The position numbers were made by a program, and so were the translations under genes. The notes under the pieces are model-generated. The model had not been told where the DNA came from. It was given only the letters and a program-made list of their open reading frames with translations, and made no database searches. Of a stretch of 64,000 nt of DNA, positions 2,569 through 39,633 are shown in pieces. The stretch lies in the NCBI RefSeq assembly GCF_053078305.1, contig NZ_CP166879.1. One strand, 5' to 3'. Within the stretch, counting starts at the first letter, position 1, and each line of letters starts with the position of its first letter.

Positions 2569-2766
2569 AAACGCTTGCTCCTTTTACGGAGAGGCGCTAA
2601 CCTTCCACTTGTTGAAGGTAGGAACGTCAGGCCTCGGGTTAAACATGAATGTTTGTCCGGGGCCTTTTCACATCCGGCCTTCAGGTGCTCCCTCCGGCCA
2701 TCAGCCAAAGGCACCCGCGCATAATGTACGGTTTTTGTCTCCTTCCGGCAATCCGGCTCCTCATGA

Positions 2767-5700
2767 TCACGAAATACTGATACCCGCCGTGGACTTCTTC
2801 ATCACGACAACCAGCAGATCGCTGATACTCGCTGTCGGGTACCATCCATTCACCAGCCAGGCAGACACAGAAAACTCCAGCGTCATATGCCCCCTTCCTG
2901 CAGGCATATCAATCACCCCTGAATACACCTGAGACTCAGCCAGCGCCGTCCTTTCAAAAAGCACCCTGCCGTTACATTTCACCATCAGCCGGCATGATGA
3001 ATAAATATCGTTATGCTCTCTCTCATGTTTAGCGCCGCTGAAAGCCACTGCCGGGATCACAATTTGCCGGTCAAAAGGCTGATCGTCATAAATCCTGACG
3101 GTAATGGTCCCCGATGGCCACCGCTCCGGTGCGCGGGAGTCCCGCGGGAAAGCCTTCCCCACGGTTTTAACAATATCGCCTTCAATCTGGTTGGCAGACA
3201 GTTTTCCAAGTATCCGGCAGTTCTGGTTAATGGTCACATTATTGAGCGTGCCCGAGTTCGCACTGATATGTCCGCTGATGTCCGCATTGCGGGCCGTCAG
3301 CCTGCCCTCCGGCGTCAGGGAGAACGTCGGGGGATTGCCGGACGAGGTGATGCTCACTGCAAACAACCGCTTCAGGAACACATCGTTCATGAACAGCTGA
3401 TTCCCCTGCGCCACAAACAGCGGCGTGGTGTTGCCGTTCTCCGGGTTAATCATCGCGATACGGTCCGCCTGCAGCAGTATATTGCTCAGGGGCTGGCCAT
3501 CAGCATCCTCAATCCCCGCACCAATACCGGCAACATACGGAATGCCGTTTTTCGTTTTCTGCACCTTCAGCATGTACAGCGCAGCCAGGTCGTTATTTGT
3601 GTCTGTCTGCACCCGCTGTATCTGCTGTATGGTGGCACTCTGGTCTTCCAGGGTTTTACTGACCGTCTGCGTGATTTCATTGCGGGTTTCGGTGATGGTG
3701 GTCTTCATCTCCGCCATCTCATCATCAAGCTGGCTGTTATCAATCAGCTCCCACATCCCCTGTGCCAGATGTGTCTTCCCGATTTCTCCTCTGAAAAAGT
3801 CCAGATACCCTTCCGCATCATTGCTGGCCCGGCCACTGGCTTCCACAAACGCAGATTTCCCCACCAGGTTGACGCTGCGCACATAAAACCAGAAATCCTT
3901 CCCCGGCTTAATGTGCGGGCCGGAGACACTCCACTGGCGGCCTGTCCCCAGATAACGGGCAGAGGTTTCCACCTGAGATGTGTCTGCGATTTTTGCCTCC
4001 GAAAACCAGAACTCAAATTGTACCGTCGGGTCATACACCGTAAGATGCGGGACCGCCGTTATCTGATAATACCCCGGCGTCAGCTCAATGCTGTCCGGTG
4101 CTGCCGGGGCGTTAATCCGGAACGTGGTGGTGGCAGGTTCGCCCTGCTGGCCGTAGCTGTTTATCGCCCTGACCGTCAGGGTGTATTCCCCGGGCGGCAG
4201 GCCACTGAAACGGTGCTCCGTATCGGCAGTGATGGCGCTGGTCACCAGGCGGCTGTTTTCACCACTGCCACTGGTCAGGCGCAGACTGAAGCGCACGCCC
4301 TTCACCACCCGCGGCGTGTCCCATTTTGCCAGCGCCATATACTGGCCGTCTGAGGCACTCACCTCCACCGTGAGGTGCTGCACTGCCGGCGGGATGACGC
4401 TGTTCAGTGAACCGGAGAGCGGCTCAAAGCGGGCCCCGTTATCCACGATGGCTTCTTTTTCCGGTACGTGCTGCACTGCCGTGATGGCAAAGGTGCCGTC
4501 CGTGTTTTCCCGGATGGAAACACAGCGGAACAGGCGACGACGCAGTGACGGCAGGGAGAGTCCCCACACACCGTATGTCTCCACGCCATCCGGCAGGGCG
4601 CTGACCTGTATCCGGTCAGGGGCGGGGTGTGCAGTGATGTCCACGCGCACCGGCTTACCGCTGCCGTTAATCAGGTTCACCGTCGATGTACCTGCTTCCG
4701 GCAGTGTCACCTCACGGTCCAGCGTCAGTGTGCGGCTGGCGGCATCGATGGACAGGATGCGTCCACCGGTCAGGGTCCCGGCATAGTCGTTATCACAGAT
4801 TTCAATGATGTCACCGGGCGTGTGCCGCAGCCCCTGTGACCCGAGCATGAAATCCACCGTCTGTGTTTCCAGCAGTTCTGTCTTTATCACCCACAGTCCG
4901 GCACGGTGGGCCTGACCGCGGCTGGTACAGCCGAACGCATCCATCTTCAGCAGATTGCGCCCGTAGCGCAGGATGGCGTCCGGGTCTTCCACCAGTTCCG
5001 TGGAAGTCTGCCAGCCGTTCTGCGGGTCAGTGTAATTCACCTCCACCGCCGTGTGCCGGTCCTTCAGGGCACTGAAGCTGTAGCGGAACCCCACGCCGTT
5101 ATCATCCACCACCACATCGCTGTTGGTGTACGGCCACACCACATCCGACGGACGGTCCTGAACGAACGTCAGCGTCTGGCCGTTCCATACCGGCATACAG
5201 CGCATCGCCGAGCAGAAATCCCCCAGGACATCCCACACCTTACGCTGCTGTGACAGGTACGCATTGAAAGTCATCCGCGGCTCTGTTCCCCCGAAACCAT
5301 CCGGGACCGTCTGGTCACAGTACTGCCCGATGGCATACAGTGCCCACTTGTCCACGTCCGGGGCCCCCAGGCGTTTTCCCATCCCGTAGCGCGGGTGGGT
5401 CAGCATGTCCCACAGGCACCAGGCCGGGTTATTGCTGTATGCCGGTTTCAGACTCCCGTCCCAGATACCGCTGTAGGTGCGTTTTTCCGGGTCATAGTTT
5501 GACGGCACCTGAATGATGCGACCACGGATATGGTAGTTCACCGTCAGCTGCTGGCCACCAAACTGCTCCGCATCCACCTGCAGCCCCACAATGGCCGTGT
5601 TCGGGTAGCACTGTTTCACATCGATGATTTCGGTGTATGACGACCACAGCGTTCTGTTCTGCAGCTGGTCCGTGGTGCTGTCCGCCGTCTCCCTGACCAT

Positions 5701-37772: not shown

Positions 37773-38144
37773 ATGCGAATTTTCAAAAACGCCTGGTTTG
37801 AACGTTTCGCCCGAAAACATCGGATTTCCGATAAATCGCTGCGCGAAATCGTGGAGCAGGCCGATAAGGGGATCATATCCGCAAATTTGGGTAGTGGTGT
37901 CATTAAACAAAGATTAGCCCGAAGTGGTGGCGGAAAATCAGGCGGTTACCGGACAATAATTTTTTACCGCGTTGCAGAAAAAGCCTTTTTCATCTACGCA
38001 TACGCAAAGAATGAACGAGAGAATATCACCGCTATAGAGGAAAATGCTTTTCGAAAAGCCGCTCCCCATGTCCTCAATCTTACTGATGAACAGCTGGCAC
38101 AATTGATTCTACAAGGCCAGTTCACGGAGGTACCCAATGAGTAA
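37773..38144 (+). CDS. Type II toxin, Gp49/RelE-like (DUF891-like)
   Basis: 123 aa; ...GGYRTIIFYRVAEKAFFIYAYAKNERENITAIEE...; 8-nt overlap with downstream HTH gene. Confidence 0.6.
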   Translation: MRIFKNAWFERFARKHRISDKSLREIVEQADKGIISANLGSGVIKQRLARSGGGKSGGYRTIIFYRVAEKAFFIYAYAKNERENITAIEENAFRKAAPHVLNLTDEQLAQLILQGQFTEVPNE

Positions 38145-38454
38145 AAATTACCGCAGTGATGCACTTGCATCTGTACATGAAATGATGGAGTCACTCCATG
38201 ATATCGGTGCAATCACAAAACAAACTATGCGCGAATTCGATGAAACTTGTCTTCAGCCTGCGCCGGTAATGTCTCCAGAAAGGATCCGTGCACTGCGAGA
38301 ACGAGAGCATCTGTCTCAACCTGTTTTTGCCAGATACCTCAACGTCAGTAAAAACCTGATATCAGACTGGGAACGAGGAGTGAAACGCCCGGGAGGTGCA
38401 GCTCTTCGGCTTCTTTCAGTTGTCGAGAAAAACGGGATCCAGGTAATATCCTGA
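38137..38454 (+). CDS. XRE-family HTH antitoxin / regulator
   Basis: 105 aa; ...LREREHLSQPVFARYLNVSKNLISDWERGVKRP... helix-turn-helix. Confidence 0.6.
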   Translation: MSKNYRSDALASVHEMMESLHDIGAITKQTMREFDETCLQPAPVMSPERIRALREREHLSQPVFARYLNVSKNLISDWERGVKRPGGAALRLLSVVEKNGIQVIS

Positions 38455-38556
38455 TATTCTAATACAACAAAACCCGCCGAAGCAGGTTAAGTGCGGGTGC
38501 GTTGAGGATGCCTGGCACATCAGAGGTGGCGAGGGATTTCTCCCTCGCCTGGTCTC

Positions 38557-38712
38557 TTACTCCTCAGGTTCGTAAGCTGTGAAGACAGCGACCTCCGTCT
38601 GGCCGGTTCGGATTCGTACCTCGCAGAGGTCTTTCCTCGTTACCAGTGCCGTCACTATGACGGTTAAACAGATGACGATCAGGGCGATTAACATCGCCTT
38701 TTGCTGCTTCAT
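38557..38712 (-). CDS. hokD: Hok-family type I toxin (HokD/RelF-like)
   Basis: MKQQKAMLIALIVICLTVIVTALVTRKDLCEVRIRTGQTEVAVFTAYEPEE, internal start of track ORF (a mok-like upstream extension). Confidence 0.9.
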   Translation of the reverse strand: MKQQKAMLIALIVICLTVIVTALVTRKDLCEVRIRTGQTEVAVFTAYEPEE

Positions 38713-38983
38713 AGCCTGCTTCTCCTTGCCTTTCGGCACGTAAGAGGCTAACCTACATTTGTGAGACATAGATTGGGCCTCAGATTAATGTTAAGCGTCT
38801 TGCAGGACGCGAAATGTTAACTGGGGCTTTTCTCTATCTGCCTTTTGGTGTTCATGCCTGAGACAGATAGCCTCAAGCACCCGCAGCGATTTTACAGAAA
38901 TAAGTTATTATTTTCTATCTCACCCTTCACTTATCTCATTCCTAGCTATACTCATCGTTCACACAACATTAAAGGGCATAAAA

Positions 38984-39157
38984 ATGACCGTTCATGGTAT
39001 ACAGGAAGGCAGTATTGTTAACTTACGTGAAAAAGATGGGGAATGGCTTGTAGTACAAACTATTAAAAACGACGACCTTACATATCAACTCCGAAATACA
39101 GATACCAGCGAAGAAGTAAACGTCGCACTTCAGGACATTATCTCCCCAAATAAATAA
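38984..39157 (+). CDS. Small hypothetical protein (57 aa)
   Basis: Read by eye: MTVHGIQEGSIVNLREKDGEWLVVQTIKNDDLTYQLRNTDTSEEVNVALQDIISPNK; AAAGGG RBS. Confidence 0.3.
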   Translation: MTVHGIQEGSIVNLREKDGEWLVVQTIKNDDLTYQLRNTDTSEEVNVALQDIISPNK

Positions 39158-39279
39158 TCAAATTAGCGGGGCGAACAATGCCCCGCACTGTGCTACTTAT
39201 CATCCCCAGCGGCAAATCGAATACACCACCAGCGCCACCGCCATTGCAATACCAACATTTGAGAAGGCTTCAGGCCAGC

Positions 39280-39633
39280 TCATTGGCGCACCTCCTTCGG
39301 CGGTTCTGGTAGCGACATCCAGTGTGTGGCTTCACACACGATGGGCGCACCGAAACACTGCGCATACTGGAAGTCACCCGTATTATCCAGGTTAAAACCT
39401 GTAAACTGTTCACCCGTGCTGGACACAAACAGTTGTACATCAACACCAACTGGCGGCATTCGCTCACTACAGCTTATCCAACCATCCGGAGTTACCGGAG
39501 AATTGCCAGCCTTGCGCATGGCAATCTCCATGATTTCAACCATATCTCCTGGTGGAATTTTACAAAGTTGCCCAATACATTTCTGCTGCCTGGCATATTC
39601 GAGGATGTGCTCCAGCTTGATACGATTAATCAT
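39280..39633 (-). CDS. DUF551-like phage protein
   Basis: 117 aa; ...WISCSERMPP...; nin region. Confidence 0.5.
   Translation of the reverse strand: MINRIKLEHILEYARQQKCIGQLCKIPPGDMVEIMEIAMRKAGNSPVTPDGWISCSERMPPVGVDVQLFVSSTGEQFTGFNLDNTGDFQYAQCFGAPIVCEATHWMSLPEPPKEVRQ

Follow-up and report, generated by a model that had tools for sequence, protein, structure and literature searches.

A gene for a Hok-type toxin on the minus strand and an ORF of 57 aa on the plus strand lie divergently, their starts 272 nt apart in the ORF list, within the 64,000-nt stretch of DNA analysed here (the window, from contig NZ_CP166879.1 of RefSeq assembly GCF_053078305.1). This arrangement raises two questions: whether the short ORF is a gene, and whether it takes part in the toxin-antitoxin system beside which it is found. 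By its gene content, with DUF551, Ead/Ea22, DUF968, RusA and Q genes around the locus and replication genes further to the right, the locus belongs to a nin-type region within a lambdoid prophage; early-right transcription of this prophage follows the minus strand of the window. The elements assigned to the toxin module are the following.

38471-38488, minus strand: intrinsic terminator of the hok mRNA, AACCTGCTTCGGCGGGTT followed by a T-rich tail (terminator scan; 3' hairpin of the MFE fold)
38495-38507, minus strand: fbi (fold-back inhibitory) element CCUCAACGCACCC, partner of the 5' tac element (MFE fold)
38557-38712, minus strand: hok toxin gene, 51 aa (ORF list, Pfam, PHROG and identity to K-12 HokD)
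38557-38769, minus strand: mok-like leader ORF of 70 codons (ORF list; position equivalent to the annotated mokW of 933W)
38707-38882, minus strand: 5' leader of the hok mRNA (match to Rfam RF01794 'sok')
38726-38754, plus strand: Sok promoter, TTGCCT and TAACCT with a 17-nt spacer (read from the sequence; identical in 933W upstream of sokW)
38761-38831, plus strand: Sok antisense RNA, about 71 nt (sokW annotation of 933W transferred by alignment)
38871-38882, minus strand: tac element GGGUGCUUGAGG, the first 12 nt of the hok mRNA
38889-38917, minus strand: hok promoter, TAGAAA and TAAAAT with a 17-nt spacer (promoter scan)

The toxin matched the Pfam family PF01848 HOK_GEF with E = 1.2e-23 and 82.9 bits (cut-off 22), and PHROG 251 with 2.8e-33. 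The RF01794 'sok' covariance model, which describes the hok mRNA leader, was matched over its full length (1-157) with 121 bits against a gathering score of 59 (E = 1.3e-28), the match having a 16-nt insertion in one leader hairpin with respect to the Rfam consensus. The transcription start predicted from the hok promoter, around 38882, coincides with position 1 of this model, and the -35 of that promoter falls within inserted cassette DNA according to the empty-site alignment. The mok-like ORF begins 19 codons upstream of hok in the same frame, with GAGG 8 nt before its ATG. On the opposite strand, the 71-nt Sok region and its promoter are identical or nearly so to the annotated sokW of 933W; the promoter, whose -10 is weak, was absent from the calls of the consensus promoter scan. 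The predicted Sok RNA has a hairpin and CTTTT at its end, and is antisense to the mok start region. In both the MFE and the centroid folds of the 421-nt hok mRNA, nucleotides 1-12 pair with the fbi sequence through 12 bp with one bulge, the tac and fbi elements being taken as defined in PMC9841398; the fold has a z of -7.55 with respect to shuffles.

When compared with hokD (relF) of the Qin prophage of E. coli K-12, the toxin is identical in all 51 residues, and the DNA identity is 98.5% over the part that begins with the terminator and fbi element and ends 14 nt before the hok ATG. In both cases the gene is part of a lambdoid nin-type region and precedes ydfU (DUF968) and Q. The homology to K-12 is limited, however, to positions 38469-38726 of the window and stops just upstream of the ATG: in K-12 the mok start, the Sok promoter and RNA, the tac element and the hok promoter are replaced by relBE, whereas the window copy has all of them. 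Since the elements missing in K-12 are kept here, the window can be regarded as holding the intact form of the hokD locus. The preliminary description of this DNA had recognised a canonical HokD/RelF-like toxin in a nin region; the identity to K-12 HokD, the presence of mok, sok, tac and fbi, and the flanking genes agree with both statements, and the Sok promoter and fbi element that it had proposed to search for were found, as detailed above. The interval that it had delimited, 38557-39160, encloses both ORFs correctly and cuts off the hok 3' UTR at its left end; with fbi and the terminator lying outside it, the hok module is better placed at approximately 38465-38917.

The locus also shares 92.5% DNA identity over 411 nt with hokW-sokW of the Stx phage 933W and the Sakai prophage Sp5. 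Both 933W and the window have mok, the Sok promoter and RNA, tac/fbi and the -10 of the hok promoter, and Hok is identical to HokW of 933W/Sp5 in 47 of 51 residues, the four differences being C-terminal. In contrast with the window, 933W lacks the RelE/HTH pair downstream of hok as well as the 57-aa ORF, with some 35 nt in place of a 300-bp cassette; because this site is empty, the -35 of its hok promoter differs from that of the window. By experiment, hokW-sokW is a working type I toxin-antitoxin system in which sokW RNA neutralises HokW, and it is functional without the 57-aa ORF (PMC8621323). Toxicity of Hok and neutralisation by Sok have their experimental basis in the 92%-identical hokW-sokW, and are predicted by homology for the window copy. 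The organisation is also that described for hok/sok of plasmid R1 (PMC9841398), with a toxin of some 50 aa, a mok of 70 codons whose start lies 19 codons upstream, a GAGG Shine-Dalgarno sequence, an antisense Sok with its own promoter, long-range tac/fbi pairing and a 3' terminator. The R1 system is carried by a plasmid, while the window locus is in a chromosomal prophage; unlike in R1, the window mok is in frame with hok and would give an N-terminally extended Hok.

All these elements taken together, the window carries, as predicted from its sequence features, a complete hokD-type hok/mok/sok type I toxin-antitoxin locus, the biology of which is already known and well understood. By homology, a stable hok mRNA would be produced from the promoter at 38889-38917 and kept untranslatable by pairing between 5' tac and 3' fbi, until trimming of the 3' end would render it translatable via the mok leader ORF. 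The unstable antisense Sok (38761-38831) would bind the hok mRNA, leading to its decay and blocking translation, and if the supply of Sok were lost the 51-aa membrane toxin would kill the cell. The outcome could be prophage addiction, or assistance in lysis and phage release as for hokW-sokW.

The DNA to the right of the hok promoter has a different composition and contains the features listed below, together with the neighbouring ORF that borders it.

38896-39199, plus strand: low-GC 'moron'-like insert with the 57-aa gene and a hairpin (empty-site alignment)
38946-38952, plus strand: CTATACT, -10-like, invariant in 12 of 12 distinct cassettes
38961-38968, plus strand: motif ACACAACA (invariant columns of the cassette alignment, 12 of 12 variants)
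38971-38976, plus strand: Shine-Dalgarno sequence AAAGGG, 7 nt before the ATG (sequence)
38984-39157, plus strand: 57-aa ORF, MTVHGIQEGS...ISPNK (ORF list)
39166-39186, no strand assigned: GC-rich hairpin GCGGGGC-GAACAAT-GCCCCGC, 8 nt after the ORF stop (terminator scan)
39200-39283, minus strand: 27-aa hydrophobic ORF MSWPEAFSNVGIAMAVALVVYSICRWG (ORF list)

The coding status of the 57-aa ORF was evaluated with 29 loci that were fetched and that represent 12 distinct coding sequences, with amino acid identities down to 66%. An ORF of this size could be untranslated, the conserved 300-bp block acting as DNA or RNA (it could be an sRNA, for instance, or could space the promoters and terminators of hok and the nin operon), in which case its open frame would be incidental. 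Several observations would fit such a block: there is no convincing promoter with a -35 for the ORF, the -35 of hok lies inside it, the closest copies are not called by PGAP, and the family is confined to one species. In addition, dN/dS is around 1 in some intermediate pairs (the window versus L003/L007), and the third-position enrichment among variable sites is not significant (21/16/26, p = 0.30). These have to be set against the behaviour of the frame itself, which is intact in the 29 loci and in each of the 12 distinct sequences, and which is the sole one of six that is open in all 8 sequences tested, the other five having 1-6 stops each. The indels found in the ORF (-3, -6, and +6 with -3), at least four of them independent, are all multiples of 3; deep pairs give dN/dS values of 0.23-0.42 with a significant synonymous excess (Fisher p = 0.001-0.04); and amino acid replacements are mostly conservative (I/V, K/R, D/E/N). 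The Shine-Dalgarno sequence is correctly spaced, and the block gives no Rfam match even at E <= 1, on which ground a known prophage sRNA in the cassette was rejected. An untranslated block is on balance unlikely, and the 57-aa ORF is most likely a genuine protein gene under moderate constraint, as far as the comparison of sequences can tell.

With respect to its start, two protein calls of 98 aa (P0002, P0005) are N-terminal extensions through the hok leader and were rejected as the true form; the frame upstream is continuous with that of the 57-aa ORF in some variants only, and not in the window, and the ATG at 38984 is therefore considered the real start.

The cassette that contains the gene is about 300 bp long and has a GC content of 38.5%, versus 49-52% in its flanks. 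Its empty site, in 933W and in vB_EcoM-606R7, consists of around 35 nt between the -10 of the hok promoter and the end of the 27-aa ORF, and the left cassette end is the same in the window and in the translocated copies (L009 and L029). The CTATACT and ACACAACA motifs are kept even in L004/L005, where the DNA further upstream differs. A good -35 upstream of the 57-aa ORF was not found, CTATACT was not called by the promoter scan, and the scan gave no acceptable sigma-70 site placed to express the ORF, its only match overlapping the ATG. A search for a LexA-box-like site near the ORF was also negative, and SOS control was rejected. In the window type of cassette the hairpin after the gene has a T-rich tail on the minus strand only, which points to a terminator for the DUF551/27-aa transcript, and it is possibly a weak stop or stabiliser for the mRNA of the 57-aa ORF. 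It is kept with changed stems in the variants; in L004/L005 it reads CCCCCC...GGGGGG with a T-tail on the plus strand, a proper terminator. PasA, which co-occurs with Sok within 10 kb, is located between the sialate esterase and holin genes and not in the cassette.

These traits recall the morons of Hendrix and colleagues, reportedly additional genes that sit between conserved ones of the phage and bring transcription signals of their own. Like them, the cassette shows presence/absence polymorphism with a clean empty site, a GC content below that of its flanks, an ORF opposite to the adjoining phage genes in every context, a hairpin right after the gene, and occurrence at two different positions in lambdoid genomes. 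As to the promoter expected of a moron, the cassette offers the invariant -10-like TATACT, without an acceptable -35. Unlike known moron proteins, the 57-aa product matches none of their families.

The gene is rare. DNA searches located it in 18 complete E. coli genomes out of 5426, and no copy turned up among 50,697 phage records; 14 IMG/VR contigs carry it, and the exact 57-aa protein is recorded on around 101 contigs. Assemblies GCA_017226535.1 and GCA_026420245.1 are examples with the exact cassette. A word-indexed search of 5.8 billion proteins returned 6 clusters, the 4 with a source-given name being from E. coli, and an exhaustive profile search of 1.84 billion representatives returned 3 true clusters, all the named ones again from E. 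coli. The remaining 29 matches of the profile search were polyubiquitin and other repeat proteins. No significant match was obtained in Pfam, PHROGs, NCBIfam or PADLOC, and a literature search with the peptide sequence and its RefSeq accessions found no paper. In PADLOC-DB only the candidate family PDC-M49B was matched, and weakly so (E = 0.0032, 15.8 bits), between residues 13-52 of the protein and a profile of 135 positions.

The preliminary description had presented this ORF, about 270 bp from hok on the opposite strand, as unannotated, with a plausible RBS and of no recognised family. Its position and distance were accurate, and AAAGGG is a well-placed RBS. The homology search for small proteins that it had suggested led to nothing beyond the tiny E. 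coli-named family, three clusters at 50% identity in the 1.84 billion representatives, in keeping with the lack of a recognised family. The word 'unannotated' needs to be qualified: RefSeq indeed has no annotation on copies that are 98% identical, but an identical protein is in GenBank as 'hypothetical protein', and RefSeq annotates 75%-identical variants (WP_157910004.1, WP_187469051.1) under that same name.

Some apparent relationships were considered and rejected. The matches to polyubiquitin, SpaA repeats and YadA stalks are an artefact of summing weak repeated matches: those to polyubiquitin reach E-values down to 6e-14, and each stretch has about 11 bits and an i-Evalue around 2e4 and straddles two ubiquitin units, while in the large library di-ubiquitin on its own has E = 8.6 and mono-ubiquitin is not matched. 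A ubiquitin-like protein was also discarded on structural grounds, as the AF2 model is made up of beta strands only and forms a hairpin at the place of the crossover that ubiquitin requires. The MazE/AbrB (SpoVT) antitoxin family PF04014 was rejected because the match, of 15.1 bits and covering residues 4-28 only, is below the family cut-off (24.7) and there is no co-oriented partner toxin gene in the window-type cassette.

The 57-aa protein is acidic (pI 4.45) and has no transmembrane or hydrophobic segment. AlphaFold2, run with an 11-sequence alignment, gave a four-strand model of moderate confidence (mean pLDDT 67) that resembles SH3/Tudor/KOW barrels; the best Foldseek matches, E = 0.08 against the PDB and E = 0.005 against BFVD, the latter to unnamed phage proteins, are not significant. 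The model suggests that the product is probably a small, cytoplasmic SH3/Tudor-like beta-barrel. Like morons, the gene is probably active in the repressed prophage, since its transcription runs against that of the phage early-right operon. Judging by fold class, acidity and moron-like surroundings, the most likely mode of action of the product would be that of a small binding protein, produced by the lysogen, which would sequester or modulate a protein of the host or of an incoming phage, and such binding might serve lysogen fitness, exclusion or counter-defence. Morons often prove to encode exclusion, anti-defence or host-modulating factors. Any functional assignment is nonetheless speculative, the family being so small, and we regard it as quite improbable that the protein represents a new family of lysogen-expressed small beta-barrel inhibitors or decoys, or a modulator of Hok or of the 27-aa peptide.

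Concerning the relation between the two divergent genes, we consider it probable that they belong to two independent modules, hok/mok/sok on one side and the low-GC insert with the moron-like 57-aa gene on the other, which have become adjacent through prophage mosaicism. The coding status of the ORF and its independence from hok are supported by the data; its expression, fold and function we infer. The opposite possibility is that the 57-aa protein is an accessory of hok/sok, either as a modulator of Hok or Sok or because its divergent promoter regulates hok. It finds some basis in the arrangement, since hok adjoins the ORF, in divergent orientation, in 27 of the 29 loci. One of these is L020, in which the Hok beside the ORF is another variant (35% identity) and has a sok leader of its own. 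Furthermore, the -35 of hok and the region upstream of the ORF overlap back-to-back, with predicted starts some 77 bp apart, and read-through from Sok, which lies 150 nt upstream and on the same strand, could co-transcribe the ORF.

Distribution tells against this. Around 4943 of the 5426 complete E. coli genomes match a 901-bp query containing hok (38400-39300), versus the 18 that have the ORF, which is absent from more than 99% of the genomes matched by that query and from all 50,697 phage records. In L009 and L029 the ORF is near the integrase, with perC and abc2 on either side, and neither hok nor a sok leader is present there; it also remains intact in loci of the L004 type, where hok is decayed (its start ATG changed to ATA, and a TAG at codon 3) and where the hok leader and sok are deleted, with no RF01794 match. 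Moreover, hokW-sokW works without it (PMC8621323), and the copies adjacent to hok are largely one inherited arrangement. The presence of the ORF with an intact, a decayed or no hok, and always opposing the phage genes, indicates an autonomous moron-like gene and not a component of hok/sok. A link to hok is unlikely even given hok beside the ORF in 27 of 29 loci, and an accessory role in the specific forms outlined above has a very small chance of being correct. A functional link between hok and the 57-aa ORF had not been claimed in the preliminary description, and the evidence points against one.

The other neighbour, the 27-aa ORF, is convergent with the 57-aa ORF and overlaps the stop of the DUF551 gene through ATGA. 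The 27-aa peptide clusters with 121-aa DUF551 proteins, and a fusion was rejected as the explanation, the peptide being absent from those proteins. It is very unlikely that both ORFs form a pair, with the 27-aa membrane peptide as a toxin under the control of the 57-aa protein, or of antisense transcription when the 57-aa mRNA reads through the weak plus-strand hairpin. Such a pair would fit with each of the 29 loci with the 57-aa ORF (the translocated L009 and L029 included) having the 27-aa ORF downstream of it on the other strand; the peptide resembles a single transmembrane peptide of the size of type I toxins, and read-through on the plus strand is plausible with a hairpin that in the window type has its T-tail on the minus strand only. 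On the other hand, the 27-aa ORF is also present in 88 phage records, all without the 57-aa ORF; it appears translationally coupled through ATGA to whichever nin or ea gene lies before it; it is interrupted by stop codons in L007 and L005, where the 57-aa ORF is intact; and in loci of the L004 type another gene and a proper plus-strand terminator separate the two ORFs.

The contribution of each part of this region to our view of lambdoid prophages is uneven. The hok/sok part adds little, as a textbook toxin-antitoxin system of type I, which is of note only as the intact form of the hokD remnant of K-12. If the 57-aa protein were an inhibitor or decoy, its target could be, for example, a protein of the host or of a superinfecting phage, and if it acted on one of its toxin neighbours, the region would be a composite, three-part addiction or exclusion island. 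The 27-aa predicted membrane peptide, widely conserved in Stx and other coliphages and largely unannotated, may be a more general lead. The 57-aa gene, with two independent modules as the preferred reading of the locus, stands as an example of a short, rare and lineage-restricted prophage gene, inconsistently called and outside the family databases, yet apparently selected.

In addition to hok/sok and the 57-aa ORF, the following features were found in the window:
39200-39283, minus strand, 27-aa hydrophobic ORF (MSWPEAFSNVGIAMAVALVVYSICRWG)
38845-39021, plus strand, 58-codon TTG ORF that crosses the hok leader/promoter and reaches the beginning of the 57-aa ORF
37773-38454, plus strand, type II toxin-antitoxin-like pair directly adjoining the hok terminator

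The ATG of the 27-aa ORF shares bases with the stop codon (TGA) of the DUF551 gene upstream, and the sequence GGAGGTG is located 5' of it. Conservation of the peptide, which has the pattern [M][STN]WPEAF..VG...AVA..YS..RWG, extends over 88 phage records with identities down to 63%, its carriers including 933W, VT2-Sakai and BP-4795 and also the virulent Vequintavirinae phage Av-05. The gene upstream varies, yet its end is always overlapped by the 27-aa ORF. The annotated records inspected (the cassette loci L001-L007, BP-4795 and Av-05) give it no CDS of its own; a few GenBank records list it as a 27-aa "hypothetical protein". The ORF probably encodes a real small membrane protein.

In some strains the TTG ORF shares the reading frame of the 57-aa ORF, which leads gene callers to give 98-aa proteins (P0002, P0005). 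Since the two ORFs are out of frame in the window, this extended form is most likely an annotation artefact.

A variant of the cassette was identified in other loci:
L004/L005 (E. coli C5 and RM11911), 2825-3710, and also L025-L028, cassette variant with a decayed hok

These loci have lost the leader and sok by deletion, and in their hok the start codon is changed from ATG to ATA and codon 3 is a TAG. RefSeq nonetheless lists a 45-aa "Hok/Gef family protein", the start of which is an internal Met. In the L004/L005-type variant a proper terminator is found 3' of the homologue of the 57-aa ORF, followed by an extra 95-aa hypothetical gene on the plus strand, with a weak CCDC90-like match (E = 3e-7, below the cut-off).

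The toxin-antitoxin-like pair runs against the orientation of the phage genes. Its members are a RelE-family toxin (123 aa, PF06296 at E = 6e-47) and an overlapping antitoxin-like HTH_3 gene (105 aa), which is weakly similar to MqsA/NadS. This pair is missing from L001-L007; O157 prophages carry it, as do L010-L016, the loci with an exact match. Two addiction-type modules and the orphan gene are thus stacked in this short stretch.

The position of the orphan gene is occupied differently in O157-type prophages, as in the comparison locus:
L030 (E. coli O157 FDAARGOS_293), 2585-3133, minus strand, ORF6N-domain (antirepressor-like) gene

There, the ORF6N-domain gene replaces the 57-aa ORF between the hok promoter and the region of the 27-aa ORF, and this slot is therefore a recurrent cargo position.
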